In this document: in pieces, positions 14,135 through 60,622 of the stretch
Layout of the letters: each line of letters opens with the position of its first letter
Position numbering within the stretch: position 1 is the stretch's first letter
IMG/VR virus record: IMGVR_UViG_3300045988_159436
Strand: one strand, 5' to 3'
From: a virus
DNA: 64,000 nt
Position numbers and translations under genes: made by a program
The notes under the pieces: model-generated
What the model was told of the DNA's origin: nothing
The model's input: the letters and a program-made list of their open reading frames with translations, nothing else
The model's database searches: none

Positions 14135-14139
14135 ACCAT

Positions 14140-14212
14140 GCTAGTGTAGCTCAATAGGTAGAGCAACGGCTTTGTAAGCCGTGGGTTGCGGGTTCAATTC
14201 CTGCCACTAGCT
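14140..14212 (+). tRNA. tRNA-Thr(TGT)
   Basis: cloverleaf by eye. Confidence 0.75.
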
Positions 14213-14354
14213 CCATTTTAAAAATTGAATAGTTAGGGAAAGCCCTAGCTATTTTTGTTTATATGCAATAAACTTTATAAAAAACACTGTTACAACTGTA
14301 AAAAACAAAATAATTTATTTGCAAAGGAAGTGTTTGTTATAAGGAGTGTTCAAA

Positions 14355-16451: not shown

Positions 16452-16766
16452 GATAACAAATTGAGTCAATTACCTTTTACTTCAATTAACTATGGTTTAG
16501 ATATAACGCCAGAAGGAAGATTAGTAACAAAATGGTTATTAAATGCTTCTATTGAGGGAATAGGCAAAAATCATTTAACTCCGATTTTTCCAATAAGTAT
16601 TTTTCAATACAAAAAAGGGGTTAATGATAGAGAGGGAACTCCTAATTATGATTTAAAAAAATTAGCCATAAAGAGTTTAAGTAAAAGGATATATCCAAAC
16701 ATTGTAAATTGTGATTGGAGTAAAAATCCTGCTTCAAACATTGATGAAGAAATGGCTACAATGGGT
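16452..16766 (+). CDS. nrdD: NrdD exon 2
   Basis: ...SQLPFTSINYGLD...EEMATMG| ends at G of conserved MG-CR junction. Confidence 0.65.
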
Positions 16767-17012
16767 AAGTGGAACTTAGCCCATTTAAAACCCTTTGAAC
16801 GCCGTCAGGCGGTGTGACCAGTAGGTTGCTAACGGTTAGGACTCTTTGAGTTGAGACCGTGCTAAGGTTCATATATTGTGATGAACAAAGTGTATCGACT
16901 AGCCGTGATGAGTGTAGCGGCGTAGGGACGGAGATAGACACCGTATCCGAAGCGGAGGGCTGTTTTTAAACAGATAATATAGTCAGTACCACTAGCGATA
17001 GTGGAGAATACG
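16767..17012 (+). mobile_element. small ORF-less group I-like intron 2 in nrdD (246 nt, GC-richer, structured)
   Basis: splits conserved ..MG|CRTLIG..; follows U, ends G; stop codons in reading frame. Confidence 0.55.
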
Positions 17013-26726: not shown

Positions 26727-26756
26727 ATGACCCAGCTTGGATGAAGACAGCGGCGT
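26727..26756 (+). CDS. putative capsid mini-exon (~10 codons, YDPAWMKTAA); boundaries uncertain
   Basis: in-frame join satisfying U/G splice rules; gcggcgt 5' splice context duplicated at 25828-25834 and 26750-26756. Confidence 0.3.
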
Positions 26757-26892
26757 AAGCCGATAGCATTAGTCCACTTGTGCAGAAATGCACTCGATTA
26801 AACTTCGTGAAAACATGGAACTCCTAAACCGAAAGGCATGGCAATCATGTGAGAAGGTTATGTGAAAATCTATTTTAAAAGGAGTAACGAAA

Positions 26893-27477
26893 GTGAAACA
26901 AGTAATTAAAGATTATCCAAATTATTTGATAACTACATCTGGAAAAGTTCTTTCCGCTTATAAAGGGGGAGAAGAGCTAGTTCCTAGAGTTGGAACTAGA
27001 GGATACGCTTATGTAAATCTTTATAACGAAAAAGGCAGAAAAACAAAAAAGATACATAGACTTGTAGCTGAAACGTTTATACCTAACCCAGAAAATAAGC
27101 CTATGGTAAATCATAAAGACGGAAACAAGTTAAATAATCATGTAGAGAATTTAGAATGGGTAACACCCTCTGAAAATGCTCAACATGCTGTTGATAATGG
27201 GTTGCTGTCTTTTGATACAGAAGCACATAAAAGAGCTTCTCGTGAAAATGGCAAAATGTTTGGTGGAAGGTGTGGCAGAAAGATTTTCGCCATGAATGTT
27301 ATAAATGGATATATAAAAACTTTTAAGAGCGTGTCAGAAGCTGTGAAATATTTAAATGTGACAGAAAACTCATTAAGAACAGCTCTTAAAAAAAGTAAGT
27401 GTATAAATGGTTATCATGTTTGGTATACAGATACCCTTGCAACGACTATGGACGAAGAGCCCAAAATAGGGTTATGA
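26893..27477 (+). CDS. HNH homing endonuclease (NUMOD4 + HNH_3 + AP2-like)
   Basis: PNYLITTSGKV.., HHKDGNKLNNHVENLEWVTPSEN. Confidence 0.8.
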   Translation: MKQVIKDYPNYLITTSGKVLSAYKGGEELVPRVGTRGYAYVNLYNEKGRKTKKIHRLVAETFIPNPENKPMVNHKDGNKLNNHVENLEWVTPSENAQHAVDNGLLSFDTEAHKRASRENGKMFGGRCGRKIFAMNVINGYIKTFKSVSEAVKYLNVTENSLRTALKKSKCINGYHVWYTDTLATTMDEEPKIGL

Positions 27478-41637: not shown

Positions 41638-42096
41638 ATGTTTAATGAAAATATAGCTTTAGATTGTTCAATGGTTGGGGAGTTGTTTGATAAAGATGGA
41701 AATTTAAAGCAGTTAGTGGAAAAGCATAATATGATTTTGAATGCTGGATTTGATTTTATTTGTGATTGTATTGGAAAATCTTCTGGTAGACCTACAAATT
41801 TAACACATATTGCTGTAGGGACAGGTAGCGCTAGCACACTAGCTACAGATTTAGGGTTAAAACAAGAGTGTGTAAGAAGCACAGCAACTTATACGCATAC
41901 TAAAGGCACAAAATTTTTCACTATGGTAGCTACTTTTGCCCCTGGGGTTGGAACAGGTTCTTTGACTGAAACTGGGTTATGTAATGCTTCTTCTGGAGGG
42001 GTTACAATGGATAGAGTTGTTTTTCCAGTAGTAAATAAAGAAGCAACAGATACTTTTAAAGTGACATTCCAATTTAAATTAGCAGAAAAGGCATAA
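41638..42096 (+). CDS. hypothetical tail protein
   Basis: ORF track. Confidence 0.4.
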   Translation: MFNENIALDCSMVGELFDKDGNLKQLVEKHNMILNAGFDFICDCIGKSSGRPTNLTHIAVGTGSASTLATDLGLKQECVRSTATYTHTKGTKFFTMVATFAPGVGTGSLTETGLCNASSGGVTMDRVVFPVVNKEATDTFKVTFQFKLAEKA

Positions 42097-42100
42097 ATAA

Positions 42101-43168
42101 ATGCCAACAGTAGAGATTTATACAGATGAGCCTAGACAAGCCAGAATAAATGAGATTCCTTTAAAAATTAATACAATACATAAAAAAATCAAGGATTTTA
42201 GATTACAGGATAAGGGCGTAAGAATTGCTTATGATTTAGAGCTTAATGATACAGTATCTCGACAAGTTTCTTTTGAAAGAAGTTTTAAAGAAGAATTAGA
42301 AATAGAAGATAAGATTACTAAATTTTTTGAGAAAAAAACAGTATATAATTTAGAGACAGAAGAAATAGCAGAAAAGTTTACAGAAAAATTCTTTGAAAGC
42401 AGGATAGAAATTCAGGAATCTTTGAATAAAATATACGAATTAAATTTAGTAGAAGAATTAGAAATAGAAGATAAGATTACTAAATTTTTTGAGAAAAAAA
42501 CAGTATATAATTTAGAGACAGAAGAAATAGCAGAAAAGTTTACAGAAAAATTCTTTGAAAGCAGGATAGAAATTCAGGAATCTTTGAATAAAATATACGA
42601 ATTAAATTTAGTAGAAGAATTAGAAATAGAAGAATTAAAAGCTAAAGAATTGAGTAAGACATTTGAAGTATTTGTAGAATTAATAGAGATTTATTTAAGA
42701 CATGCTGGAACTGTATTAAGTGATTTAACTCTTTATAATGTTGCTTTAAATGAAACAAATTTTGACCAAGCAATAACTCCTGCTGGATATGATAGATTTA
42801 AAACAATGTTAACTGGGGATTATATTTACCAAAAAGCTTTATTTAGGTTTATTTTATCCGCTACAACTACAAGCGGTGAAAGACCAAATACAAGGGAGTA
42901 TATGCATAAAGTAGATGTTCCTGATACCTTTGAGACAGGAACAATAGAATTTGAGACTAATTGGAATCCTGCTACATATGAATTTAGTAGAGAATTTCAC
43001 ATTGTGCCAGAAGTTACCTATACTATTATTAGAGTTGAAAATATGGAAGAATTAAATCAAGCAGTAGTTTTACCAATAGAAGTTACAACTAAACATATAA
43101 TCGCACAATTAAAAGTTGGCAGTAAATATGTTAATGGTGCCGTTTCATTTTCTGCTAGAGGATATTAA
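42101..43168 (+). CDS. tail-associated protein containing perfect 168-bp (56-aa) tandem duplication
   Basis: 42289-42456 == 42457-42624. Confidence 0.5.
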   Translation: MPTVEIYTDEPRQARINEIPLKINTIHKKIKDFRLQDKGVRIAYDLELNDTVSRQVSFERSFKEELEIEDKITKFFEKKTVYNLETEEIAEKFTEKFFESRIEIQESLNKIYELNLVEELEIEDKITKFFEKKTVYNLETEEIAEKFTEKFFESRIEIQESLNKIYELNLVEELEIEELKAKELSKTFEVFVELIEIYLRHAGTVLSDLTLYNVALNETNFDQAITPAGYDRFKTMLTGDYIYQKALFRFILSATTTSGERPNTREYMHKVDVPDTFETGTIEFETNWNPATYEFSREFHIVPEVTYTIIRVENMEELNQAVVLPIEVTTKHIIAQLKVGSKYVNGAVSFSARGY

Positions 43169-43179
43169 GGAGGGATAAT

Positions 43180-43788
43180 ATGCAAAAATTAGTTACGATT
43201 GAAGAGGCTTGGACGTTAGCAAATTCATTAGGTTATATAAATGATAATTTTAGAAGTTTATTAACAAATAATGCTGGAACAGCATTTCCTTCTACAGAGT
43301 TAGAGTTAGGGATGTCTTGTTTTCGAACTGACCAGTTAAAAATGTATAATTTAGTAAATGTAGAAAGAGAGATTTGGGTTTTAACAATGGATTTAACTCA
43401 AACATATGTTACTAAAGAATATGTAGATAATATTAAAATACCATTGAGTAGGGTTACGGATTTAATTGATTCTGTTACAAATAAAATTAAAGATAATTTA
43501 ATTAATTCTGGATTAGATAATGGACAAGTAGTTGTGGTTGGGGATGGAAACAAAATTGCTACTTCTTTAATTGATACTGGAACTGCATCTGGACAAATTC
43601 CAATAATCAATAAAAATAATAAAGTTGAAATGGGATTAATTGATACAGGAACAACAGCAGGAAAAATTCCTATGCTTCAAGCCGAAGGTAAATTGCCTGC
43701 ATCTACATTGCCTAACAATTTAGCAACTTTTAATGATGCAGGAGAATTAGTATTTCCAAATAAAAATAGAATATTTGTAGGTAGTTAA
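43180..43788 (+). CDS. tail fibre-like protein
   Basis: ORF track. Confidence 0.4.
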   Translation: MQKLVTIEEAWTLANSLGYINDNFRSLLTNNAGTAFPSTELELGMSCFRTDQLKMYNLVNVEREIWVLTMDLTQTYVTKEYVDNIKIPLSRVTDLIDSVTNKIKDNLINSGLDNGQVVVVGDGNKIATSLIDTGTASGQIPIINKNNKVEMGLIDTGTTAGKIPMLQAEGKLPASTLPNNLATFNDAGELVFPNKNRIFVGS

Positions 43789-43789
43789 T

Positions 43790-45082
43790 ATGTCTAATGT
43801 AGATAGCAAGAATAAATTAAAAATGGTTATAGGGGGCGTTAAATATGGACTCCCTCTTTACGATAGTTATAATGATTTTTATAATAAAAAGTATGCAACA
43901 ATTTTATTGTCAAATGGAGATATCAGGTATATTGGATTGACACCAGATAGGTCAGATTTGACGGTTAATGCAGGATGTTATTTATCAGATAAAAAGCATT
44001 ATTTTCTTATAAGAGAAATAACTTCTAATTCAATTAATGCAGGAGGAAGTTTTTGGCAATATATTGCAAATAGTCAAACATTTCAATACCAGAAAATTAT
44101 TTCTACAATGGCTTATGCCCCTGAAAGCGGAATTTATAGAGTTGTTTTTAAAATAAAATGGTCTGGAAGTTATAATGATTATCATAATTATAGATACAAT
44201 AGTTTCTATAGATTCACTGTAAAACAAGGCGATAAAGTTCTAGCAGATACTGGTGAACATAGTTTAGCAGAAAGTATTTTTTATCCTTATTCTACTGGGA
44301 ATGCCTCACAATCTTCACAGGCAAGTGTTGCTAAATGGATGACATTAGGGGAACAGAGATTGTATTTAAAAGCTGGAAGTAATGCTTTTGATTTATGGTT
44401 AGGAATGCGTTTTGATAATAATAAACATGCCGCCGCATATGTTTCTCCTTTTCAAGTAGAAGCAACATATTTAAATTCTAATCAATTAGATGCTTTTTAT
44501 GATGATGGTATATTTAAATGCCCAGATAATGTTGATAAAATAAATGTTATAATGGCGGGTGGCGGTGGCGGTGGCGGCGCCTTAGTTCGTGTAAAGTATA
44601 AAAGTTATTCTGAACATTCAACTAATGTTTCATATTCTTATGGTTCTAATGATGGAAGTGATGGTCAATTTATAAATCGAGAAATTGCAGTTACTCCAAA
44701 TGCTTCGTATCCTGTTTTTATCGGAAAAGGTGGAGCCGCTAGTACCGATAATTTAAAAATAGAACTTGGAGAATATACTTTTTCCACTCCTGGGAATTAT
44801 GCCGCAGGAGATGGAAAAGATGGAACAGCTACTACTGCCTTTGGGCTTACTGCTAATGGAGGTAAAGGTGGTTATGGAGGACTTTTAACCATTTATGATT
44901 CTCACCGCACAAGAGAATTTATAAAAAGACCCCCAACAACTACAGAAAGTGCTAATGGAGGTAAAGGTGGTTCTTTAGTTACTCAATCATGGGGTGGAAT
45001 ATTTGACAGATATACAGGAGACATGAAAAATGCTTCAAATGGAGGCAATGGATATGTAAAGATAGAGTATTCAAAAAATTGA
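43790..45082 (+). CDS. glycine-rich tail fibre/receptor-binding protein (GGGGGGGAL, GGKGGYGG)
   Basis: Gly-rich motifs. Confidence 0.45.
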   Translation: MSNVDSKNKLKMVIGGVKYGLPLYDSYNDFYNKKYATILLSNGDIRYIGLTPDRSDLTVNAGCYLSDKKHYFLIREITSNSINAGGSFWQYIANSQTFQYQKIISTMAYAPESGIYRVVFKIKWSGSYNDYHNYRYNSFYRFTVKQGDKVLADTGEHSLAESIFYPYSTGNASQSSQASVAKWMTLGEQRLYLKAGSNAFDLWLGMRFDNNKHAAAYVSPFQVEATYLNSNQLDAFYDDGIFKCPDNVDKINVIMAGGGGGGGALVRVKYKSYSEHSTNVSYSYGSNDGSDGQFINREIAVTPNASYPVFIGKGGAASTDNLKIELGEYTFSTPGNYAAGDGKDGTATTAFGLTANGGKGGYGGLLTIYDSHRTREFIKRPPTTTESANGGKGGSLVTQSWGGIFDRYTGDMKNASNGGNGYVKIEYSKN

Positions 45083-45092
45083 GGTGATATAG

Positions 45093-45521
45093 TTGGCATA
45101 CCAAAAATTTACTGGTGAAGAATTTATTGATACAGAATTAACACCAAAATTAAATGATAATTTTGATGCTGTACGTTCTGGGAATGCAGGAACAGTTTTC
45201 CCAACAGAAAATTTAGTAATTGGAATGAAATTTTTTGATACAAGTTCAAATAAAGAATATACTTTAGTTAATTTAAATCCTATAGAATGGAAAAAATTAG
45301 GTGGAACAGTAATAAGAAGAACGTTTACTTTAGCAGATTGGGTAAAGAGCGGGAATAATTATATTTATAATCTTGGAGATGGACAGTATTCGGTAACTGG
45401 GGTAGGAGCGCAAAGTGGGAGCTCTTATAAGAGTGTGTTGATAGATGTTACTAATAATAACTTAGTTTCCATATCTGTTTTTAGTGGATACGTAGATTAT
45501 ACAGAATATAATGAAGAGTAG
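45093..45521 (+). CDS. tail fibre N-terminal anchor protein (paralog of N-terminus of 52692 fibre)
   Basis: MAYQKFTGEEFIDTELTPKLNDNFDAV vs MAYEAFTGEEYIDTDLVAKLNQNYDAC. Confidence 0.5.
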   Translation: MAYQKFTGEEFIDTELTPKLNDNFDAVRSGNAGTVFPTENLVIGMKFFDTSSNKEYTLVNLNPIEWKKLGGTVIRRTFTLADWVKSGNNYIYNLGDGQYSVTGVGAQSGSSYKSVLIDVTNNNLVSISVFSGYVDYTEYNEE

Positions 45522-45533
45522 GAGTGATAATTT

Positions 45534-47348
45534 TTGGAACATATAACTAAACAAGAAGATGTAACAGTAACTAGAATAGTAAGCTCTTTAAATACTTTAG
45601 ATGATGAAAATATGGTGGTAGTGTCCACTACAGAGCCAGAGAAGAAAAAAGATGGATTAATATGGGTTAATCCAAATCAAGAAGAAGCGGAAAAATTGGT
45701 TTATGTAGGACATACAGTTGGTGACATTTATCCCATTAGTTATACAGAGTTAGATTCAGGTCAGTTAATATTAAATGGTCAGTTAATAAGCAGAGAAATA
45801 TATGGTGTGTTATGGGATTGGTTGCAAAAACACCCTAGTTTAATAAAAACAGAAGTAGAGTGGAATGCATATTTAGCATCAACAAATAATGTATGTTGCC
45901 CATATTTTAGTATGGGAACTACTGAAACTAATTTTAGATTGCCTAAATATAGTGGAGTATTTATTAGAGCTGATTCTGATATAACTAAAATTAATCAATT
46001 TAGTGAAGATACACAAAGAAATATTCTTGGACAATTTACAACTTTTCGTACAAGTTGGGATGATGGTACTGGAGAATTACTTTTTGGAGTGAGTGGAGCT
46101 TTTGCAAAAGTAGAAACTGGTAATAATATGGACAGTATTCATCAAGATGGCTCAGACAGACAACAGCAAACTATAAATTTCGACGCTTCACGTTCAGTAG
46201 GCGCAGAGCATACTGGCGAAGAAGTAAAACCTAAATCAATAAATCAAATATGGGTTATTCAAGCTGTAGGAACTATTACTAATCAAACAAGTATTGATGT
46301 AAGTGCTATTCAAGAAGAAGTGCAACAATTAATGGATTTTGGGAATTATCAAGTAGCTTGCATTAAGGATAAATCCAATTATTTTTCAAGAGATAGTTTA
46401 TTTACTTCAAACAAAACGTCTATTGTTATTCCTAAGAATATGCGGATAAATATAAATGGAGAGGCTTATATAAGCACACGTAATGTCACTCTTAATACTT
46501 CAACATTAGGTGAAAATCTAGCGGGTAAAGATGTTTATATTTATGCCTTAGCAGGTTCTGGAACAGAGCCAGATTTTGTATTATCTTTAAATAGTACAGT
46601 TCCTACAGGATATACAGCAGAAAATAGCCGTAAAATAGGTGGTTTTCATTGTTTATGTAAAGATGTTGGGATTATAGAAGGGCATGCTTTATCTGGATAT
46701 GTTGCAGGGGATATCTTACCAGCAACAAGATGGGATTTAGAACACCGCCCAAAAGGAAATCCAGAAGGATTTGCTTATGAAGAATTAACGGATTGTTGGA
46801 TTGCGATTTATCTGCCAAGTTGGGACGGAACTAAATTAGTCAGTGTTTATAATGGAGTTATTGCTGATGGAAGCTCTGCTAAAAAATGGCATGGAGAAGC
46901 TTTTTATGAGCAATTTGTAAAACAAGGAATGCGTTTAGTTTGGCGGCACGAATTTCAAATGGGAGCAAAAGGTTCTAATGAACAAACAAATATTCAAGGT
47001 TCATCTGACCCTAATACTACAGGTGGGCATGTAGATACGGCTGGAAGAAGAATGATTAGTAATATAGGATTAGAAGATTGTTGTGGTGTATTATGGCAAT
47101 TTTCAATGGATTTAGGCTTTGCTGGCGGGTCTGGTTGGACAAATTCTACTTATAACTCTAATGTAGACGATAGAAGTTATGGACGAACATATGGAACGCT
47201 TTATCGCTTGCTGTTGGGTTCTAGCTGGAATGTTGGCTCGTATTGCGGTTCTCGTTCGGCTAATTGCAATGATTCTTCGGCTTATGTGTCTGTCCACAAC
47301 TCTTCTCGTAGTGCGTCTGAGCCGAGAATTGAAAATTTGAGAAACTAA
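45534..47348 (+). CDS. DGR target protein: receptor-binding protein with C-terminal C-type-lectin-like variable region
   Basis: VR occupies last ~37 codons. Confidence 0.8.
   Translation: MEHITKQEDVTVTRIVSSLNTLDDENMVVVSTTEPEKKKDGLIWVNPNQEEAEKLVYVGHTVGDIYPISYTELDSGQLILNGQLISREIYGVLWDWLQKHPSLIKTEVEWNAYLASTNNVCCPYFSMGTTETNFRLPKYSGVFIRADSDITKINQFSEDTQRNILGQFTTFRTSWDDGTGELLFGVSGAFAKVETGNNMDSIHQDGSDRQQQTINFDASRSVGAEHTGEEVKPKSINQIWVIQAVGTITNQTSIDVSAIQEEVQQLMDFGNYQVACIKDKSNYFSRDSLFTSNKTSIVIPKNMRININGEAYISTRNVTLNTSTLGENLAGKDVYIYALAGSGTEPDFVLSLNSTVPTGYTAENSRKIGGFHCLCKDVGIIEGHALSGYVAGDILPATRWDLEHRPKGNPEGFAYEELTDCWIAIYLPSWDGTKLVSVYNGVIADGSSAKKWHGEAFYEQFVKQGMRLVWRHEFQMGAKGSNEQTNIQGSSDPNTTGGHVDTAGRRMISNIGLEDCCGVLWQFSMDLGFAGGSGWTNSTYNSNVDDRSYGRTYGTLYRLLLGSSWNVGSYCGSRSANCNDSSAYVSVHNSSRSASEPRIENLRN
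47208..47320 (+). repeat. DGR variable repeat (VR)
   Basis: 113 nt; 15 mismatches to TR, all at TR adenines. Confidence 0.85.
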
Positions 47349-47495
47349 GAAACCGAGAAAAAGTTTGGATAGTTGGACAGAGAGGTCTAGAAACCGAGAG
47401 ACCGAGACTAAAATTTTTAGTTGTGAGAAAATAAAGAAGATTATATAATAATATTATATAAGGGCATATATGATACTTAGATTGGCAAGATTTTT

Positions 47496-47608
47496 TTGCT
47501 GTTGAGTTCTAACTGGAATAATGGCACGAATTGCAGTTCTCGTTCAGCTAATTGCAATGATTCATCAGCTAATGTGAATGTCAACAACTCTTCTCGTAGT
47601 ACGTCTGA
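47496..47608 (+). repeat. DGR template repeat (TR)
   Basis: non-coding copy, Asn-codon (AAY) rich in VR frame. Confidence 0.85.
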
Positions 47609-47759
47609 TACGTGGGTGATTTTAAAGCAGGTGCGGCTTACCCTCGGCTGATTATATATGCCTCACTGAAAAGTGAAATACAAAACAGGGAGAAATAGGG
47701 GCTAGTAAAGTAATTGAACGTCCTTATTTCTAAATTTTATTAAATTAAAAGGATAATTA

Positions 47760-48776
47760 ATGAAAAGAAAAGGAAATTTATGGACTAAAATAATAGACAA
47801 AAGCAATTTATATTTGGCTTTTGAGAAAGCTAAAAGACATAAAAGTTGGCAAAGAAAGGTTAAAATTATAGAAGCAAATTTAGATTATTATATTGAAAAG
47901 TTACAAAATGATTTGATAACAGGTCAATATAAAACTGCTGAATATAAGTTAAAAACAATTTATGAGCCAAAGAAAAGAGATATTTATATTTTGCCATTTT
48001 ATCCAGATAGGATAGTTCATCACGCTATTATGAATGTTTTAGAGCCTATATGGGATAATAGATTTATTTATAATAGTTATGCTTGTCGAAAAAATAAAGG
48101 TCAACATAAAGGCAGTATAAAATGTATGGAATACACTAGAAAGTTTAAATATTGTTTGAAATGTGATATAAGTAAATTTTATCCTTCTATTAATCACAGG
48201 CTTCTAAAGAAAGTGATACGTAAAAAAATAAAATGTAAAAAGACTTTAAATTTATTAGATGAGATAATTGATAGTGTTGATACGCCTGTAAATGTTCCTA
48301 TAGGAAATTATTTAAGTCAGTGGTTTGGAAACTTATATTTAAATGAGTTAGATGTTTTTCTAAAGCAAGAGAATTGTGTAAAAAATTATTTAAGATATTG
48401 CGATGATTTTTTATTATTTTCTGATGATAAAACATATTTAAATAAAATGGCTAAAATAATAAATGAATATGTAGTTAATATTTTAGAATTAAAACTTAGC
48501 AAATGTGTTTTGTTTCCAACAGCACAAGGAGTTGATTTTTTAGGATATAGACATTTCCATGCTGGTTATGTTTTGGTAAGAAAATCAACAGCTAAAAGAA
48601 TGAAGCGTAGGATTAAAAGATTAAAATATGAATTATTAAAGAATAAAATAAGTCAAGATAAGGCTTTATCTGTTGTAGCAAGTTTATCTGGGGGGTTAAG
48701 ATGGGCTAATAGTTACAATTTAAAAATGTCTTTAGAGCTAGAATTATTAAAAAAGGAATTAGGAGGAAACTCTTAG
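47760..48776 (+). CDS. DGR reverse transcriptase
   Basis: PIGNYLSQWFGNLYLNELD and YCDDFLLF motifs. Confidence 0.85.
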   Translation: MKRKGNLWTKIIDKSNLYLAFEKAKRHKSWQRKVKIIEANLDYYIEKLQNDLITGQYKTAEYKLKTIYEPKKRDIYILPFYPDRIVHHAIMNVLEPIWDNRFIYNSYACRKNKGQHKGSIKCMEYTRKFKYCLKCDISKFYPSINHRLLKKVIRKKIKCKKTLNLLDEIIDSVDTPVNVPIGNYLSQWFGNLYLNELDVFLKQENCVKNYLRYCDDFLLFSDDKTYLNKMAKIINEYVVNILELKLSKCVLFPTAQGVDFLGYRHFHAGYVLVRKSTAKRMKRRIKRLKYELLKNKISQDKALSVVASLSGGLRWANSYNLKMSLELELLKKELGGNS

Positions 48777-49055
48777 GTGGACAAGTTCAGTAGTTTTGCA
48801 GAAGAAAGATTAGTTGGAGATAAGGTTAGTGTTTCTGACATTTTAAATAAAGAAATAACAGTTTTATCTTATAAAATAATGAAAAGTAAAATAGAAGATG
48901 ATAATTATGCTCAAATTCAAATTGAAATAAATGGTGAAAAGAAAGTTGTATTTACAAGTTCTAAAGTTTTAAAAGACCAATTAGAAACTTATAAAGACCA
49001 TATTCCTTTTATTGCAACAATAATTAAAACAAGAAAATATTTTTCTTTTAGTTAA
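48777..49055 (+). CDS. hypothetical protein (possible DGR accessory)
   Basis: immediately downstream of RT. Confidence 0.35.
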   Translation: MDKFSSFAEERLVGDKVSVSDILNKEITVLSYKIMKSKIEDDNYAQIQIEINGEKKVVFTSSKVLKDQLETYKDHIPFIATIIKTRKYFSFS

Positions 49056-49067
49056 GGGGGAAATGTA

Positions 49068-49355
49068 ATGATAGGCTATCCAAAACATTTAAATACAAAA
49101 GCAGATTATGAATATGTAAAAAGTAATTTTCCAAAGGAAATGTGGGAAAATGATTTTCGTGTTTTATTGGAGACCGCACATGATTGGTTTTTTATTAGAG
49201 AATTAGAAAAAGGAGAGGTTCCTGTATTATTAGAAAATCAAAAGATAGAAAAAACGGAAGAAAAAGATTGTTTATTTGAATATAAATATGATGAAAATTG
49301 CACATTAAATAGATTAGGATTTACAATAGAAGAAATTGAAGAATATTTAAAATAA
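49068..49355 (+). CDS. hypothetical protein
   Basis: ORF track. Confidence 0.4.
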   Translation: MIGYPKHLNTKADYEYVKSNFPKEMWENDFRVLLETAHDWFFIRELEKGEVPVLLENQKIEKTEEKDCLFEYKYDENCTLNRLGFTIEEIEEYLK

Positions 49356-49358
49356 TAG

Positions 49359-49387
49359 TTGACAATTTTTACATAATATGGTATAAT
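49359..49387 (+). promoter_or_regulatory. sigma70-type promoter
   Basis: TTGACA-17-TGgTATAAT. Confidence 0.65.
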
Positions 49388-49451
49388 ATTTATAGTGTTC
49401 AGATAACAGCTATGACTGTTAAGTTATTACTTAAAATTTAATAAGTAATGC

Positions 49452-49480
49452 TTGACAGTCTTTTTATTTTATGTTATAAT
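49452..49480 (+). promoter_or_regulatory. sigma70-type promoter
   Basis: TTGACA-17-TGtTATAAT. Confidence 0.65.
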
Positions 49481-49489
49481 AGTATTGAG

Positions 49490-49699
49490 GTGGAGGAAAT
49501 ATTGAAAGATTTTGAGAAACGTTTAAGTAAACAAAATTTTATGTTAATTAAAGTAAATGAATATTATTTTATTAGAAAAAGCAGAGCGTTTAAAAATAGT
49601 TATATGGTATTAGATTCAAAAGGGTATTTGATAGATTGTTTACAAGAAAAAATAGTTCGGCAAGTTTTTTTAGGCATAGATTTGGGGGAATGGGAATGA
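49490..49699 (+). CDS. WE-tail family small protein A (..GEWE*), start uncertain (GTG 49490/TTG 49502)
   Basis: C-terminal module FLGIDLGEWE. Confidence 0.45.
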   Translation: MEEILKDFEKRLSKQNFMLIKVNEYYFIRKSRAFKNSYMVLDSKGYLIDCLQEKIVRQVFLGIDLGEWE

Positions 49700-49911
49700 T
49701 TAAAAAACCTAATAATAATTGTAAATTATGCAAGTGTCTTCATAACTATAGCTATTTTAAAAAAGGTGAGTATTATTGGGCTGAATTAGGAGAACGTTTT
49801 TTTGCTGGTGCAGTTGTAGTATATTTTGGGAAGGACAGACATAATATGTGCTCTGTGGTTTTTTCCGACTTTTTCATTAAATTTCGATGGGAGGATTCAC
49901 AATGGGAATGA
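49690..49911 (+). CDS. WE-tail family small protein B (MGM.. ..QWE*)
   Basis: ATGGGAAT start overlaps previous EWE-stop. Confidence 0.5.
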   Translation: MGMIKKPNNNCKLCKCLHNYSYFKKGEYYWAELGERFFAGAVVVYFGKDRHNMCSVVFSDFFIKFRWEDSQWE

Positions 49912-50108
49912 GGATAACAGTAACTCCAAAAAGACAACTTATACATTATAATTTAAATGAGCAATATATAGCAGTGCCTGTATTTAGTGTGTATGGAAGT
50001 ATGGAATATAATATTTATAATAAAAAAGGCAATCTTTTAAATTCTTGGGTATCCCAAGAGTCATTATTTAATTTTTTTAAAAAGGTAGTAGATAAAGAAT
50101 GGGAATAA
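49902..50108 (+). CDS. WE-tail family small protein C (MGM.. ..KEWE*)
   Basis: same junction architecture. Confidence 0.5.
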   Translation: MGMRITVTPKRQLIHYNLNEQYIAVPVFSVYGSMEYNIYNKKGNLLNSWVSQESLFNFFKKVVDKEWE

Positions 50109-50308
50109 AGTTAGTAAAGGCAAAAGATAATTCGGCTCATTTTAGTCGTGGAGAGTTGTATAAAGTAACCCCATATAAAACTATGTATGGAGAAACAAAA
50201 TATACTATTTATACTGAGAATGGGTGGTTTATAAAAAGTTTTGTAACAGAAGGGGAATTACTTTATTTTTTTGATGTAGTTAATAATTATAATTTTGGAT
50301 GGGAATAA
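50099..50308 (+). CDS. WE-tail family small protein D (MGI.. ..FGWE*)
   Basis: same junction architecture. Confidence 0.5.
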   Translation: MGIKLVKAKDNSAHFSRGELYKVTPYKTMYGETKYTIYTENGWFIKSFVTEGELLYFFDVVNNYNFGWE

Positions 50309-50323
50309 AAGGAGGAAATAAAA

Positions 50324-50701
50324 ATGGAACCAATTATTAGTCCGTGGGTATTTTATTTTATTGATAAGTTAGATGAGGTGTCTGGATTGCCTTTATCAAT
50401 TTTTGCTTTTGGAATGTTAACAAATTTTATATTAGTTATGGTTACTGAAACATCAGAAGAGTTTAAAAGGTGGTTTTTTCCAAAAGCGTGGTTAGCACTT
50501 TTTTTGCTATCAGTTATGTTTGTTTTTTTAGTTCCTACAAAAGAAACGGCATACAAAATGATTATAGCAAATTATGTAACGCCTAACAGTATTTCTATAG
50601 TAAAAGAAGCCACAGAAGATAACATTGCTTCTTTAATAGATAAAATAGCAGTTGCTTCACAGGCATTATCAGGAAGGGAGAAAGAATCAAAATCCAAATG
50701 A
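50324..50701 (+). CDS. membrane protein (2 TM)
   Basis: hydrophobic segments. Confidence 0.45.
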   Translation: MEPIISPWVFYFIDKLDEVSGLPLSIFAFGMLTNFILVMVTETSEEFKRWFFPKAWLALFLLSVMFVFLVPTKETAYKMIIANYVTPNSISIVKEATEDNIASLIDKIAVASQALSGREKESKSK

Positions 50702-50898
50702 AACAGATAGAAAAAGTAAAGAAATTATATAAACCAAAATTTGAAATAGTAAGAGCAGAGAAAGTAAAAGATAATTATATATTATTCTTAGATGATAAAA
50801 ATATTATATTAGAAGAAGATGCTTTTAAATCATTATTTGAGCTTTATAGTGCTTTAGTTTCTTACTATGATGTAAGAAAGGATGAAACAAATGATTGA
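50698..50898 (+). CDS. hypothetical small protein
   Basis: ORF track. Confidence 0.4.
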   Translation: MKQIEKVKKLYKPKFEIVRAEKVKDNYILFLDDKNIILEEDAFKSLFELYSALVSYYDVRKDETND

Positions 50899-50952
50899 AT
50901 TATTCAATAGGGATTGTTTTGAAGTAGCAAAACGTAGAATAGAGGAAATAAA

Positions 50953-51486
50953 ATGATTATACGCAAAGATGATTATTTTAAAGTTCGTACTTTTTTTAAG
51001 TATGATGGTAATTCCTTTTTTAAAGGAGATTTATTACGAATAGTAAATAGTTGGTCAGATGAGGAAGCGGACTTTTGTAGTGAGTATTTTGAGTTATTTT
51101 TAAAGAAAAACAATTTAATGTTTAATCAAAAGTTTCAGGTTTTGGATTATGATGGAAAATATGCTGTTGGTAATGGGGCAAAATTTTGGATAGCAGATAA
51201 TAAACTTCATTGTGATAATCCAGAGATGAATACTCGGCTTATTATGTTAGAACTATTTGCTGGTAATTGTAGTGTAAAACAATTTCCTTATTATCCCACA
51301 AATGGTGATGTATATTTTTATGTCTATATGGACGGAAGCAATAATCAGGGAGTTGTATCTAAGGGAGTATTTTATGGTAATTTAGTAGACCAGCTTTTGC
51401 GAAGTTTAGGAAAATGTTATAGAACTAGAAACGAAGCAGAAGAGCATTTAAAAGAGGATGTTAATTTTTTATTAAAAGGAAGATGA
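50953..51486 (+). CDS. hypothetical protein
   Basis: ORF track. Confidence 0.45.
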   Translation: MIIRKDDYFKVRTFFKYDGNSFFKGDLLRIVNSWSDEEADFCSEYFELFLKKNNLMFNQKFQVLDYDGKYAVGNGAKFWIADNKLHCDNPEMNTRLIMLELFAGNCSVKQFPYYPTNGDVYFYVYMDGSNNQGVVSKGVFYGNLVDQLLRSLGKCYRTRNEAEEHLKEDVNFLLKGR

Positions 51487-51490
51487 AAAA

Positions 51491-51742
51491 ATGGAAACTA
51501 AATTATTAATTATTTTAGAAAGTTTAGAAAACAAAGGGGATATAAATTCTGAAATAGATTTATCTGAAACAGGTTATACTCCAAAAGTTATTAAAGAAGC
51601 ATTACAGTCTTTAGGTTATAAAATGGTTAGTGGTTCTTGGGATTGTTACGATTTTTCAGAGGAATATGAGAAAGAGGGGGCATCAAATGTGGTGCTATCT
51701 TTTAATGCAGAAACTTTTAAATTCACAATAATGGGGGTATAA
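51491..51742 (+). CDS. hypothetical small protein
   Basis: ORF track. Confidence 0.4.
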   Translation: METKLLIILESLENKGDINSEIDLSETGYTPKVIKEALQSLGYKMVSGSWDCYDFSEEYEKEGASNVVLSFNAETFKFTIMGV

Positions 51743-51768
51743 AAATAACACTAGAAGATATTGCAGTA

Positions 51769-52065
51769 ATGAGCGCAAAAGTTCCGCAAGAATTGTTAAT
51801 TTCTTATATACAAAATGTGTCTTTAATTTATCTTATAGCGATTTTTGTTGGCATCCTTTTCTTGGTATCTGTTATCCTTTTTCTGGCATATTGGTTAAAG
51901 AATGGGTTAGAAACGTTAGATGAGGGGACATTAACTATTATCGCACTTTTTTTAGTAAGCACTTCTCTTTTTACTATTGGAGCTTCTTTTCAGGCTTTTG
52001 AAAGTTTTATTTTTTATTTTAATTGCTATTTTAATCCATTAGTTATGATATTACAGGCGGTGTAA
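51769..52065 (+). CDS. membrane protein (3 TM)
   Basis: hydrophobic. Confidence 0.4.
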   Translation: MSAKVPQELLISYIQNVSLIYLIAIFVGILFLVSVILFLAYWLKNGLETLDEGTLTIIALFLVSTSLFTIGASFQAFESFIFYFNCYFNPLVMILQAV

Positions 52066-52691: not shown

Positions 52692-54569
52692 ATGGCTTAT
52701 GAAGCTTTCACTGGTGAAGAGTATATAGATACAGATTTAGTAGCGAAACTAAATCAAAATTATGATGCTTGCGGAAAACTGGCAAGTAAAAACACATGGT
52801 CAGCAGATAATGACTTTACAGCAGGTTTGACAGTAAACAAAACTCCTACAGTAAATACTGATGTATCGAATAAAAAATATGTAGATGATAGTATAGCTAA
52901 CGGAGATGTAAATTCGGCTAAATATTTAAACATAACGAATTTTATCCCTTCAAATAGCGATTTTAATGATTACAAAACTCCTGGAAAATATCAAGTACAA
53001 AGCTATACAGTAGCAAGCACAATGGCAAATATCCCCACTAGCTATAATGATGCAACGCCAAGGAGCGGTGTATTAAGTGTATTGATTGGATTTAATGCCC
53101 TTAGAACAAGTTTAGTCCAGATTTATCGAACTTATGGGAGTAGTTATGTAGTTTCAAGAACGTATCAACGCTGTTTTTACCATGAAAATAGTCGTTGGAC
53201 TGCATGGCGAGAAATTGCTTGTACTGATGAAGTAGGCTTATTAAATCAAGCAAATACCTATACAGCATTAAATATTTTCAGGGCAAATATTGGCGTATCT
53301 AACGGAACTGCGGCAGGTAGCAGTGGTACTGTAAGTTTTGGTGTTTCTCCGACAGGTGAAACAGTACAAGCAAGAATTGGAACAGATAATTTAGGTGGAT
53401 TATTTTATTACGCAAGCACAAATCAACCTCATGTATTTAGAGTTGGAACGAATAATAATGTGTTTGTCATACGTGACGATAATACAAAAGTAACTTTTTC
53501 TAGCAATAATAAGTCCTTTGCAACGGTCACACATGATGGTGTTGCAAAATGGTTAGGTAATGCTAATACAGCAACAAAGTTACAAACCGCACGCACAATA
53601 AATGGAGTATCTTTTGATGGCACAGCAAACATTACAATAGCTGACTCTACAAAGCTCCCTATTGCTGGTGGAACAATGACAGGTAATTTAACACTTAAAG
53701 GCAATCCAACAGCAGATTTGATGGCGGCTACAAAAAAATATGTAGATGATAGTGTTGCAAGTGCAACAGCTGGTTTACTGAGTTCTAACAATATTTGGAC
53801 TGGCAGTAATACATATAATAGGGATATTCATATAACAAATGGTTCGTCCGCTGGTTCGAGTGGTACGTTATATTTAGGTGTTAAACCTGCGAATGAAACA
53901 GTACAAGCAAGAATTGGAACAGATAATTTAGGTGGATTATTTTATTACGCAAGCACAAATCAACCTCATGTATTTAGAGTTGGAACGAATAATAATGTGT
54001 TTGTCATACGTGACGATAATACAAAAGTAACTTTTTCTAGCAATAATAAGTCCTTTGCAACGGTCACACATGATGGTGTTGCAAAATGGTTAGGTAATTC
54101 TGCCACAGCAACAAAACTAGCAACTGCAAGGACTATCACAGCAAATCTTGCAAGTAGCACTGCTGGTAGCTTTGACGGCTCGGCAAATATAACAGTCGGA
54201 GTTACTGGTACTTTACCAATCGCAAATGGTGGAACAGGTTTAACTTCTGCTCCTTCTATGTTAGTAAACCTTGCTAGTACAACAGCCACATCTCCGTTAC
54301 AGGCATCTCCACGTCCAGGTGTGACAGGGACTTTACCGATAGCAAACGGCGGCACTGGACAGACAACAGCGGCAGGAGTAAGAAATGCTTTAGGGCTGGG
54401 AAACACGACAGGAGCAGTTCCTATAGCAAATGGAGGAACAGGTGCAACAACAGCCGCCGCCGCAAGGACTGCATTAGGATGTGCACCTGCATATACCTAT
54501 AGTACAACTGATTTAACCGCTGGAAGCTCTAAATTAACCACAGGCACACTTTATATTGTGTATGAATAA
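52692..54569 (+). CDS. tail fibre protein with internal ~212-bp direct repeat and IANGGTGxT collagen-like repeats
   Basis: N-terminal anchor paralogous to 45093; repeats 53358-53570 and 53896-54108. Confidence 0.6.
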   Translation: MAYEAFTGEEYIDTDLVAKLNQNYDACGKLASKNTWSADNDFTAGLTVNKTPTVNTDVSNKKYVDDSIANGDVNSAKYLNITNFIPSNSDFNDYKTPGKYQVQSYTVASTMANIPTSYNDATPRSGVLSVLIGFNALRTSLVQIYRTYGSSYVVSRTYQRCFYHENSRWTAWREIACTDEVGLLNQANTYTALNIFRANIGVSNGTAAGSSGTVSFGVSPTGETVQARIGTDNLGGLFYYASTNQPHVFRVGTNNNVFVIRDDNTKVTFSSNNKSFATVTHDGVAKWLGNANTATKLQTARTINGVSFDGTANITIADSTKLPIAGGTMTGNLTLKGNPTADLMAATKKYVDDSVASATAGLLSSNNIWTGSNTYNRDIHITNGSSAGSSGTLYLGVKPANETVQARIGTDNLGGLFYYASTNQPHVFRVGTNNNVFVIRDDNTKVTFSSNNKSFATVTHDGVAKWLGNSATATKLATARTITANLASSTAGSFDGSANITVGVTGTLPIANGGTGLTSAPSMLVNLASTTATSPLQASPRPGVTGTLPIANGGTGQTTAAGVRNALGLGNTTGAVPIANGGTGATTAAAARTALGCAPAYTYSTTDLTAGSSKLTTGTLYIVYE

Positions 54570-55461: not shown

Positions 55462-55997
55462 AATGTTTAATAAATTAATTAGGGGGGGGGCAGGCAGATA
55501 AAGAATTGTCTGTCAGCCGTCTTCCAAAATTACAATTACACGCACTAACTGATAATCCTATGAATATTACAGTCACAGGGAATATTACGGTTAGTGCGAC
55601 ACTAGAAAATAGTGGACAAATAGGTTTAACGGTCGGTCAATATACTTATGGCGGAAATCATTGGCAGTACGGTTATAGTAGCGCAGACTATGCATCAGAT
55701 CAAGTATATGGCAGTCTAAGTCCTGATACGTTCTATGGAATTAAAATAACTTCATTAATCGCAGGATTAATAGTTGATCCTAGTAGTCAGCAGCCTTTGC
55801 TACATATACTATTGATATCTTTTGCTAATAGTTTAAGTCAGAGTTCGATAAAAGTGACAATTAATAATAAGACTTATACGCTTAGTGCCCCTAATGGAAG
55901 CGCCTATTATTATGTAAATTTACCTGATAATGATACATCATTAGTGATGTGGTTACAATCACAGGTAGGTAAGACCATAACTGTAAACCTAGAGTAG
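55462..55997 (+). pseudogene. receptor-binding tip cassette paralog 1; ATG 55462 (strong AAGGAGG RBS) is out of frame with body because of G9 tract 55482-55490 (putative phase-variable)
   Basis: G8 would fuse MFNKLIRGG.. to ..SVSRLPKLQLHALTDNPMNITVTGN..; as written it terminates after 12 codons. Confidence 0.5.
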
Positions 55998-56046
55998 CAT
56001 TATTTTCAATATGTAATATTCCTCTGTGAGAAATCGGAGGAAAAAG

Positions 56047-56466
56047 ATGGCTTTGACAGACAATCCTATGAGTTTAGTGGTTACAGGCAATGTAACAGTT
56101 GGGGCAACATTAGAAGCAAGTGTACCGACTACTGAAACAAGATTGTTGAGTACTATGGATGTGAATACAACGGTTACTATTACAGTGCCTGCGGGTGTAA
56201 AAGTATTAAAAGTATCAGGTGCTGTAGACCATGAACACGAAGGTGAAGTAGCTTTAGATGTATATTCAGTAAATAGCAAAAAATATTGGTTATCTGTATA
56301 TAATTACGGATATGCTAGTGATATTTGGTATGTAGGAGTTACACCCAATAAAAGTTATACATTAAAGTTATCAACTGATAGCGAAACTGGCACTGAATCT
56401 GGAAGTGTAACTATTAGTTATTCACAATCAATTAACAATCAAACGCCTAAAGTAACCGATTACTAA
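56047..56466 (+). CDS. receptor-binding tip cassette paralog 2 (MALTDNPMSLVVTGNV...TPKVTDY)
   Basis: conserved N and C termini, variable middle. Confidence 0.55.
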   Translation: MALTDNPMSLVVTGNVTVGATLEASVPTTETRLLSTMDVNTTVTITVPAGVKVLKVSGAVDHEHEGEVALDVYSVNSKKYWLSVYNYGYASDIWYVGVTPNKSYTLKLSTDSETGTESGSVTISYSQSINNQTPKVTDY

Positions 56467-56487
56467 ACTCAAAATCTGCCGTATATT

Positions 56488-56901
56488 ATGGCTTTAACTG
56501 ATAATCCAATGTCAATTATCGTGACAGGCAATGTCACCATAGGAGCTAGCTTAGAGGCTAGTATTCCTAGTGGGGAAGTTACTTTAGCACATGGCAGTAC
56601 CTTTACAGTTCCCGCAGGAATAACAGTATTAAGAGCTTCATTTAATCAATCTGGATATTTAAGTTTGATTACGTATGTAGGTGTAACACCCAATAAATCC
56701 TATAAATTGTATTCTAATTGGACTGAATATAATTATGGAGAAGGTGAAGAATACTTGTTGTATAATGCTAACAATAATAAATCTTGGATTGATTATACTA
56801 TAGGCAATTTAGATGTTGATACTGGTTACACTGAGCTGAATTTTAAACTCGAATGGTCGCCTACTATCAATTCACACGCAGTAGAAGTTACAGACTATTA
56901 A
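56488..56901 (+). CDS. receptor-binding tip cassette paralog 3: constant N-terminus + variable C-terminal cassette A
   Basis: MALTDNPMSIIVTGNVTIGASLEASIP...SPTINSHAVEVTDY. Confidence 0.55.
   Translation: MALTDNPMSIIVTGNVTIGASLEASIPSGEVTLAHGSTFTVPAGITVLRASFNQSGYLSLITYVGVTPNKSYKLYSNWTEYNYGEGEEYLLYNANNNKSWIDYTIGNLDVDTGYTELNFKLEWSPTINSHAVEVTDY
56535..56569. repeat. 35-bp inverted repeat, left copy (caccataggagctagcttagaggctagtattccta), internal dyad TAGGAG..TATTCCTA
   Basis: perfect inverted copy at 57203-57237. Confidence 0.85.
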
Positions 56902-57237
56902 TAATCAGTAATATTAGGAGATTTCGCATTAATAGTTGGAGACCAAGATATCAAAATTCTAGCTCTATCATCCCTAGCACTTATCCAATATTTACTAGAG
57001 CTAGAATAATAGCAATAATAAAAATCATTGCTACCAACCACGACTGTTAACGTATATGTTTTTCCACCAGTTACTCCTACATAATTAGGAGATTTTTCCC
57101 CCACATCCTGAACTTCAACAACTTTTATATTAGTGGGTATAGTCACACTCCATTTATTTGTAGAGCCCGGCGATGAATATGTAGGAGATTGTACACTTCC
57201 TGTAGGAATACTAGCCTCTAAGCTAGCTCCTATGGTG
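56898..57237 (-). other. promoterless inverted C-terminal cassette B (..TGSVQSP...SPTINAKSPNITDY) convergent with cassette A
   Basis: homology to paralogs begins exactly at the inverted repeat; upstream minus-strand sequence is non-homologous. Confidence 0.5.
57203..57237. repeat. 35-bp inverted repeat, right copy
   Basis: reverse complement identical to 56535-56569. Confidence 0.85.
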
Positions 57238-57262
57238 AGGGGATTTAAGAAAGGAATTGTAG

Positions 57263-57850
57263 ATGGTAAAAATACTAATAATGGTACTATTTTTCTTGTT
57301 CCCCACATTAGCGGATGCTCATGTTGTAATGGGTGGTGATAGGGGAGAAACAATGAAGAATATAAAAATAGTAGAAAATTATTTTAAAAATAATTTTAAT
57401 TTAACTTTACATAGAGATGTTGCTGTTATTAATGTTGGTTCAGTAAAAGAATATGCGGATTTGTTAAAATACTTTAAAATAAATAATGCAGAAGAAATAG
57501 CTCAAAAAAGTGGAGCGGTAACATCTCGAAATTCTGTAATAGTTATAAATACTGCTGGAACAGATAAGAGTGATAGATTGTTTCTTTTAGCGCATGAAAT
57601 GACACATCAATATCAGTTCCAGCAGAAGGGAAAAGCGGCTACAGAAGATATGGCAATGCTTGAAGGATTTGCTGATTTAATAGCCAATGACATAAGTGGA
57701 GCTTACATATCTATTGAAAATTATGGAATAAAGCGGGAAGATTTAAAGAGTTATTCAGATTTCAACGAAGCACAAAAACAGTATGGAAATAAGGTATATG
57801 AACAGGCAAGATATTATGCAAGAAAAGAGAAGTTTTTAGATTATTACTAA
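57263..57850 (+). CDS. secreted HExxH zinc metallopeptidase-like protein
   Basis: signal peptide; LLAHEMTHQYQF. Confidence 0.45.
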   Translation: MVKILIMVLFFLFPTLADAHVVMGGDRGETMKNIKIVENYFKNNFNLTLHRDVAVINVGSVKEYADLLKYFKINNAEEIAQKSGAVTSRNSVIVINTAGTDKSDRLFLLAHEMTHQYQFQQKGKAATEDMAMLEGFADLIANDISGAYISIENYGIKREDLKSYSDFNEAQKQYGNKVYEQARYYARKEKFLDYY

Positions 57851-60112: not shown

Positions 60113-60376
60113 GTGATAGTAATGGAAATGTTGGCATTGAAAAGTGGCGTAGATTATCGAACGTTTAGGTTTATATTTGGAACTGACAAACTTTCTTATA
60201 AAGCTTCTCATAATCTTTGGAAAAAGCTTTCTACTGGTGTATCAAAAAAGCATTTAAACTTAGAATCAGTTGAAGGTGTACTAATTTATAATTTTGAATA
60301 CTCTAATGGAAAGTATTGTTATTTTCCTGAGTTTTGGTTTGAAGAAGTTAGGTATTCTGATATTGAATGGGAGTAA
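60113..60376 (+). CDS. WE-tail family small protein (..SDIEWE*)
   Basis: C-terminal module. Confidence 0.5.
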   Translation: MIVMEMLALKSGVDYRTFRFIFGTDKLSYKASHNLWKKLSTGVSKKHLNLESVEGVLIYNFEYSNGKYCYFPEFWFEEVRYSDIEWE

Positions 60377-60379
60377 AAA

Positions 60380-60622
60380 ATGGTAAAATTAAAGGAAGGA
60401 TTAAGGCATGCTGAGTGGCTTTGGTTTATGCACAATTCAATACAGTTTAGAAATGCTTGTTATGTAGATGCTAATATATTATGGAATATGTTAAAAGATG
60501 GGGTTTCAGAAGATGCCTTAAAAATCAGAGATGATAGTACAGGTTATAAAGAAATCTGTTATAAAGAAGTTAAATATGCCTTACCTATAAAGTGGTGTTT
60601 GCCAATTTTTGAATGGGAATAA
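60380..60622 (+). CDS. WE-tail family small protein (..PIFEWE*)
   Basis: C-terminal module. Confidence 0.5.
   Translation: MVKLKEGLRHAEWLWFMHNSIQFRNACYVDANILWNMLKDGVSEDALKIRDDSTGYKEICYKEVKYALPIKWCLPIFEWE

Follow-up and report, generated by a model that had tools for sequence, protein, structure and literature searches.

A diversity-generating retroelement without Avd in a tailed-phage genome, and a candidate OB-fold partner for its reverse transcriptase

The window analyzed here, the whole 64,000-nucleotide (nt) stretch of IMG/VR virus record IMGVR_UViG_3300045988_159436, is low-GC (∼31%) tailed-phage DNA and almost certainly contains a complete diversity-generating retroelement (DGR) whose diversification target is the receptor-binding tip of an Mtd-like tail fiber. 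The cassette has no gene for Avd, and its reverse transcriptase (RT) gene is followed by two small open reading frames (ORFs), Orf92 and Orf95; the best explanation of the whole, and a very probable one, is an Avd-less DGR in which both serve as accessory factors of the RT. Considered by itself, this DGR is unexceptional, if well preserved, as a case of phage tail-fiber diversification. What is new is a widespread, unannotated family of ∼95-amino-acid (aa) proteins with a predicted oligonucleotide/oligosaccharide-binding (OB) fold that is genetically coupled to Avd-less DGR RTs, plus Orf95. Nearly all that is understood of the DGR mechanism comes from BPP-1, in which cDNA synthesis requires Avd; at least since 2018 it has been an open question how Avd-less DGRs (about a quarter of all) work.

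An independent repeat finder returns a 113-nt direct repeat with 87% identity, the two copies of which, the variable repeat (VR) and the template repeat (TR), have exactly the coordinates given in the original prediction (Table 1). The claim that VR and TR differ at 15 positions, every one of them A in TR, is reproduced by base-by-base comparison (15/15), as is the richness of TR in AAY codons when read in the VR frame (10/37). Half of the TR adenines (15/30) are altered in VR, to G (8), T (5), or C (2), changing 13 codons, 10 of them nonsynonymously; homology breaks off sharply at either side of the repeats, which lie 175 nt apart, and no second TR match was found within the 64-kb window. An ordinary duplication diverged by normal mutation or recombination has a negligible chance of being the explanation, with nothing to recommend it beyond the direct repeat itself, and is refuted by the confinement of the differences to adenines of one copy, which would arise by chance with a probability of 8.6e-11 (hypergeometric). 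The same asymmetry is present in 5 sister genomes and 56 related loci, non-adenine TR positions differ from VR in 67 of 6,721 cases across 78 TR/VR pairs, and a DGR-type RT starts 151 nt downstream of TR.

VR lies in frame near the C terminus of a 604-aa ORF, as had been proposed, with nine codons remaining to the stop. This target gene is the last of the baseplate/tail-fiber module, and its product matches the Pfam family mtd_2nd (PF21916, "Mtd second domain"; 7e-20), the tail protein phrog_11262 (7.5e-49), and additional tail-fiber PHROGs. The N-terminal part is tail-fiber-like and residues ∼291 to 604 are homologous to BPP-1 Mtd, with residues 299 to 583, VR included, aligning to the solved structure (PDB 1yu4; E 2.4e-13); since this homology runs through VR, the target is predicted to carry a C-type-lectin-like variable domain there.

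The RT matches Pfam RVT_1 (2.7e-17) and phrog_1423 (2e-111), and among solved structures its best match is bRT, the RT of the BPP-1 DGR (8ub7; E 1.2e-45). Its PIGNYLSQWFGNLY box aligns with PIGSLTSQLFANVY of bRT, YCDD with YMDD, and IGNYLSQ with IGSLTSQ in the motif-4 (I/L)GxxxSQ signature, whose G182, S186, and Q187 do not vary among 21 relatives, in agreement with the earlier reading of this ORF as an RT with a DGR-specific box and YCDD. The NCBIfam models for retron, group II, and defense RTs (DRT) all score far below their cut-offs against it.

Avd is absent from the cassette. No match to the Avd families (PF22296 and PF05635) was found by Pfam among ∼60 window ORFs of 75 to 210 aa, scanned concatenated, with BPP-1 Avd (Bbp7) as a positive control scoring 7e-36 against the Pfam Avd family, and the 175-nt interval between VR and TR contains no ORF able to encode Avd. 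The original prediction was thus right that no Avd lies between VR and TR, but not in calling the arrangement atypical: among 372 DGRs avd is present in 74%, Architecture A (TR-RT, no accessory gene) makes up 29% of DGRs, and one whole RT lineage is without avd, from which the authors inferred an Avd-independent mechanism (Wu et al. 2018, PMC5758913). Because 26% of curated DGRs have no avd (PMC5758913), its absence here is not atypical. The avd-less order of target, VR, short spacer, TR, and RT recurs in 8/8 mapped distant RT relatives (40 to 66% RT identity), and the cassette is a member of a known Avd-less DGR class, not of the canonical Architecture B (avd-TR-RT).

The gene immediately following the RT, Orf92, has an AGGAGG sequence 8 nt upstream of its GTG start, and the RT stop either overlaps or directly adjoins the OB start, implying translational coupling. 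Orf92 has no match in Pfam or NCBIfam, including the single-stranded DNA-binding protein (SSB) family PF00436, and is confidently predicted by structure modeling to adopt an OB fold similar to that of SSB/PriB, the model being a beta-barrel that includes one helix. The possibility that Orf92 is itself an Avd, a strongly basic four-helix bundle, was rejected in view of the beta-barrel model, an isoelectric point (pI) of 7.9, and the lack of a Pfam match. The top structural matches to the OB model in BFVD are domains within viral RT proteins.

An exhaustive profile search shows the OB family to comprise 1,260 clusters at 50% identity (686 at E<=1e-10), none with an annotation. The association of the family with RTs was assessed with the OB family itself as the seed, and hence independently of the RT, at 13 loci from genomes and 80 from viruses, which dereplicate at 85% identity to 64 clusters; the hosts of these loci include Bacteroidota, Chlorobiaceae, Desulfobacterium, Sutterella, Clostridium, Anaerovibrio, Leptospiraceae, and the archaeon Methanogenium cariaci. 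A DGR-type RT adjoins the OB gene in 61 of these: RT is followed by OB with their ends −17 to +122 nt apart in 50, RT and OB are separated by one extra small ORF in 7, and OB precedes TR and RT in 4. In the remaining clusters the RT is either 4 kb off (1 cluster) or not in the DNA available (2 clusters). An A-biased TR/VR pair is present at 56 of 62 RT-linked OB loci, and Pfam gives no Avd-family match for any of 145 small ORFs on the same strand around related OB cassettes.

These data bear directly on whether Orf92 and Orf95 are ordinary downstream phage genes (a replication SSB, for example) behind a genuine DGR whose RT acts alone or with host factors. Such an explanation, which we regard as quite unlikely, draws on the description of Architecture A DGRs without any accessory gene (Wu et al. 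2018, PMC5758913), on the generic single-stranded DNA (ssDNA) binding of OB folds, on the lack of a Pfam SSB among the window ORFs scanned, so that the phage could need one, and on the three of 64 OB clusters that have no adjacent RT. It is opposed by the 61/64 adjacency, which persists across bacterial and archaeal hosts and despite flanking genes that are unrelated between lineages (capsid, baseplate, ParB/NinG, and lysis), and by the overlapping or abutting RT stop and OB start with the coupling these imply. Four lineages (L023, L024, L053, and L076) have the OB gene between VR and TR, the slot canonically occupied by avd, and in-frame RT-OB fusions are found both in close relatives (P0010 and P0015) and in divergent lineages with other RT active-site boxes (P0216, P0308, P0316, P0321, and P0327); RT-Orf95 fusions also exist.

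A functional link between the OB protein and the RT is therefore probable, and the suggestion that the two ORFs downstream of the RT could be accessory genes is well supported by RT adjacency, by the location in the avd slot that some lineages show, and by the RT fusions. Our inference is that Orf92 works with the RT as its dedicated accessory factor, binding single-stranded template RNA or cDNA, and that Orf95 is a second, lineage-restricted cofactor. The balance tips slightly toward a more specific role, in which the OB family (and in a sub-lineage also Orf95) would be the missing cofactor of Avd-independent DGRs and a specific replacement for Avd, a single-stranded nucleic acid-binding partner of the RT in template-primed cDNA synthesis or in cDNA protection or delivery that serves a large DGR lineage found in phages, bacteria, and archaeal viruses. 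Several observations weigh against these roles: Orf92 and the OB family as a whole (mean pI 8.1) are only mildly basic, the three OB clusters mentioned above have no adjacent RT, and two relatives with 40% RT identity (L012 and L013) have an unrelated small ORF where OB would be. Homology of that ORF to Orf92 is not supported (20% identity). A search of open-access full text, with supplementary tables outside its reach, returned nothing relevant on DGRs with OB folds or new accessory genes; given that scope, an earlier description of the OB-DGR link elsewhere is possible. One further family member, P0205 (233 aa), carries an acidic N-terminal region followed by a tandem pair of OB-family domains.

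Orf95 codes for a small acidic alpha/beta protein, and the order RT, OB, Orf95 is found in about seven lineages. An Avd-like identity for Orf95 was rejected. Accessory classes described previously are Avd, HRDC, MSL, CH1 (160 to 169 aa, acidic), and the tentative PAG1-4 (Wu et al. 2018, PMC5758913), of which CH1 (pI ∼4.7) resembles Orf95 by description in its acidity and avd-less context, but Orf95 is only 95 aa. Several IMG copies of Orf95 (in the cluster of P0191) are labeled "predicted SAM-dependent methyltransferase"; the label looks spurious, as the protein is too small and has no such Pfam match.

Other small conserved ORFs in related cassettes may be further accessory genes. A family of 123- to 141-aa ORFs with a GSRL motif occupies the VR-TR gap at six loci (L077, L079, L080, L104, L108, and L109) and was rejected as Avd, having no Pfam match and forming a family of its own. 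ORFs of ∼100 aa without a Pfam match lie between RT and OB at L022, L025, L050, L063, L068, and L078, and the ORF that follows the RT in L012 and L013, where OB is absent, belongs to an acidic 102-aa family, also without a Pfam match. In the DGR cassette of a related phage, L007, a HEARO RNA (RF02033, 99 bits) with an adjacent 480-aa ORF, which is probably IscB-like, is inserted directly after the OB gene (L007:4345-6019).

The activity of the element in nature can be followed by comparing the window with five IMG/VR contigs whose RTs are 97 to 99% identical. In these six genomes the VRs are just 82 to 87% identical, compared with at least 98% for TR and 95 to 97% for the 600 nt upstream of VR. 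Variation in VR falls at TR adenines in 24 of 27 variable columns, each genome has 15 to 23 mismatches between its own VR and TR with at least 91% of them on TR adenines, and each TR adenine but the last is changed in at least one genome. A constant TR together with VRs that diverge at TR adenines indicates that the element has been active in nature, and comparison of the genomes points to repeated mutagenic homing, recent in the population.

The RT of the window itself has a substitution, W312G, at a residue where at least 90% of aligned relatives have Trp, and three of the six sister genomes have a broken RT, through W30stop (L003), W312stop (L002), or a frameshift (L009). These changes tell against an active cassette, and the W312G copy in the window could be impaired. 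They underlie the alternative that the cassette in this genome is a recently silenced relic with a VR diversified earlier and a dead RT, to which the commonness of fragmentary RT clusters among near-identical genomes also lends support. We consider this unlikely, as the RT ORF is full length, bRT has His at the position equivalent to W312 and Trp there is thus not essential to the fold, and a G-to-A change at 47564 is private to TR of the window, the VR of which has T there; this fits a homing event later than the TR mutation. Disrupted RTs may reflect recurrent switching off of DGRs after diversification. The L009 frameshift is one additional A in the A7 run at 48215-48221 and could be an assembly error; W312G hits the same codon as the L002 stop, and the fragmentary RT clusters (P0016, P0018, and P0021) are common on near-identical contigs of ∼95 kb.

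The outcome at TR adenines varies with the following base. In 78 unique TR/VR pairs (L001 to L112 plus the window), adenines with a 3′ G become G in VR in 82% of cases and those with a 3′ A or T in 14 to 25%; all six sister genomes have G in VR at TR offsets 9, 39, 50, 71, and 105, and two of these sites are synonymous. This bias was rejected as a novelty, since it is already published that bRT errors vary with the base that follows the template adenine on its 3′ side (PMC12875486). It is consistent with a lineage-specific flavor of known bRT behavior, NAC being different here, and selection may be an added contributor.

At the 3′ end of VR, a difference between GA/GCC in VR and GA/TAC in TR (the slash marking the boundary) is kept in at least nine lineages and is the likely equivalent of the initiation of mutagenic homing (IMH) and IMH* sites. 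The boundary in the window coincides with the first CCGAGA repeat and, in a DNA fold, with the 3′ arm of a 6-bp stem (47303-47308/47323-47328); stems using VR-specific bases recur across lineages but vary, with no uniform VR-side hairpin. CCGAGA occurs eight times in the 64-kb window, four of them in an 86-nt series that begins exactly where VR/TR homology ends and runs into the VR-TR spacer, and comparable GAAAACGAG repeats are present in the corresponding spacer of L007 and L011. Further downstream, a perfect 9-3-9 palindrome overlaps the −10 element of a promoter-like site, and from its sequence this segment is a candidate promoter/operator for the TR-RT transcript.

The segment between TR and the RT is a putative structured RNA. 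In the ten lineages with RTs closest to that of the window, TR invariably ends in GATAC and the spacer aligns well; RNAalifold finds compensatory changes in 20 of 23 base pairs of this alignment, and its three helices, P1 to P3, are reproduced by the minimum-energy fold of the window spacer. Related spacers match Rfam RT-18 and RT-17 above threshold, and by alignment and predicted fold the spacer belongs to a known class of RT-associated structured RNAs, outside any curated family. Three results count against these assignments of cis elements: neither a GC-rich IMH nor a clear BPP-1-like cruciform was found 3′ of VR, the single-sequence spacer fold is no better than those of shuffled sequences (z −0.9), and the match to Rfam RT-14 (47643-47732; 32.9 bits, E 0.047) is under the 48.1-bit gathering threshold.

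Together these features suggest a mechanism in which a TR-spacer-RT(-Orf92-Orf95) transcript, probably from the promoter-like site upstream of TR, would fold in its spacer into three helices, with P1 clamping GATAC at the TR 3′ boundary. The RT would copy TR into cDNA, misreading adenines, and the cDNA would replace VR at the 3′ end of the Mtd-like gene up to the GA/GCC (VR) and GA/TAC (TR) boundary, so that homing re-randomizes up to 30 nucleotide positions in the putative C-type-lectin-like receptor-binding tip. Orf92, translationally coupled to the RT, would stand in for Avd, with Orf95 following, and the OB protein would provide either Avd-like help with priming and processivity or protection and delivery of the cDNA; a physical RT-OB complex, the site of cDNA initiation, and the biochemical roles of OB and Orf95 are all putative elements of this scheme. 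If correct, it would represent a second cofactor solution for mutagenic retrohoming, would improve the annotation of thousands of cassettes, and could yield compact parts for DGR-based directed-evolution tools, the efficiency of which is known to be limited by ssDNA fate (e.g., ExoI inhibition).

Table 1. Features of the DGR cassette and its surroundings (coordinates are those of the window)
Feature	Coordinates	Strand	Description
Target gene	45534..47348	+	604-aa Mtd-like tail-fiber/receptor-binding protein; Pfam, PHROG, and PDB matches
Variable repeat (VR)	47208..47320	+	Codons 559-596 of target; near-exclusively TR-adenine differences among six sister genomes
VR 3′ boundary, IMH-like	47319..47328	+	VR GA/GCC versus TR GA/TAC
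Four direct CCGAGA repeats, VR-TR spacer	47322..47407	+	Starts at 47322, 47353, 47394, and 47402
Promoter-like site and palindrome	47421..47461	+	TTGTGA-17-TATAAT (47421-47449); TTATATAAT-AAT-ATTATATAA (47441-47461)
Template repeat (TR)	47496..47608	+	30 adenines, 10 AAY codons in VR frame; at least 98% identical in six genomes
Structured spacer of DGR RNA (putative)	47607..47759	+	Begins at invariant GATAC, TR 3′ boundary
Spacer helix P1	47611-47619/47638-47646	+	RNAalifold; clamps TR 3′ boundary
Spacer helix P2, small hairpin	47663-47667/47672-47676	+	RNAalifold; then A-rich AAAUACAAAA tract
Spacer helix P3, long hairpin	47691-47702/47720-47731	+	RNAalifold; CUAGUA...GAA internal loop
DGR reverse transcriptase	47760..48776	+	338 aa; intact ORF; W312G
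Orf92	48777..49055	+	Small predicted OB-fold protein, candidate DGR accessory factor; GTG start abuts RT stop
Orf95	49068..49355	+	95-aa acidic (pI 4.70) alpha/beta protein, second candidate accessory gene; RT-OB-Orf95 order, fusions
Sigma-70 consensus promoter	49359..49387	+	Perfect (TTGACA-17-TATAAT with TG); opens next transcription unit; 3′ limit of cassette

Near-identical contigs of 94 to 101 kb are very common in public metagenomes, and a megablast comparison of window positions 42000-52000 with 50,697 phage records gave no match. Behind two perfect consensus sigma-70 promoters (at 49359 and 49452) is a group of small overlapping ORFs (49448-50308), which together with a similar group at 60113-60622 form a multicopy family of 69 to 91 aa, all ending in (E/G/Q)WE. 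A 355-aa protein (42101-43168) contains an exact tandem duplication of ∼53 aa (EELEIEDKITKFFEKKTVYNLETEEIAEKFTEKFFESRIEIQESLNKIYELNLV, twice). Four paralogous genes of ∼140 to 160 aa lie at 55506-57353, with the N terminus MALTDNPM..TVTGN and the C terminus ..TDY; three are on the + strand, and the − strand carries the fourth (56898-57353), in which the common N terminus is missing. A variation system of invertible or cassette type by the 625-aa gene at 52692-54569 is one possibility for the set, plain paralogs another. The region set 11055-14215, 16461-16817, and 25905-27477 contains 15 clustered tRNA genes, a dUTPase, a 3D-domain protein, and an isolated NrdD fragment with LAGLIDADG/HNH homing-endonuclease genes, the last two suggesting split or invaded genes.

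Among known systems, bacterial SSB and PriB share the predicted fold of Orf92 but differ in several respects, as Orf92 has no Pfam SSB match, structural alignments give 8 to 14% identity, and the OB family is extended at the N terminus by FS(D/E)FA, lacks an acidic tail at the C terminus, and is confined to DGR RTs in its genomic context. The spacer is like Rfam RT-14, RT-17, and RT-18 (RF02921, RF03020, and RF03021) in lying directly upstream of an RT gene and in its order of a small hairpin, an A-rich tract, and a long hairpin with a UAGUA...GAA loop; it differs from RT-14 in having no counterpart of the 51-nt first hairpin of that model, and in its sub-threshold score.

The BPP-1 DGR (mtd-avd-TR-brt) shares with the window a target homologous in the Mtd second domain and the C-terminal variable lectin-like region, a homologous RT (E 1e-45), A-specific mutagenesis, the logic of tail-fiber tropism, and a TR placed upstream of the RT with a structured spacer of ∼150 nt. 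The window differs in having no avd, a VR-TR gap of 175 nt, no GC-rich IMH, and another spacer sequence, and in the OB-fold gene and Orf95 that follow its RT; the BPP-1 gene after brt, bbp4, which overlaps the brt 3′ end, is unrelated and was rejected as an OB-family member (hhalign probability 0.04). Architecture A1 (target-TR-RT) and Lineage 3 have the same one-strand order without avd, but the survey gives no accessory gene for that architecture (Wu et al. 2018, PMC5758913).

The DGR of the archaeal virus ANMV-1 (KP703175; PMC4372165) has the same order as the window, with the adtA target, TR, RT, and an OB-family gene, although its RT is distant. Its OB-family protein, AJP62065.1 (98 aa), is encoded 3 nt past the RT, scores 5.5e-34 against the OB profile, and is labeled "hypothetical protein" in GenBank. 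The figure legend of the ANMV-1 paper draws an "Avd", apparently picked by pI and size, with no claim of homology or fold (Paul et al. 2015, PMC4372165), and AJP62065.1, with a pI of 9.1 and a mass of 11.4 kDa, fits that description.

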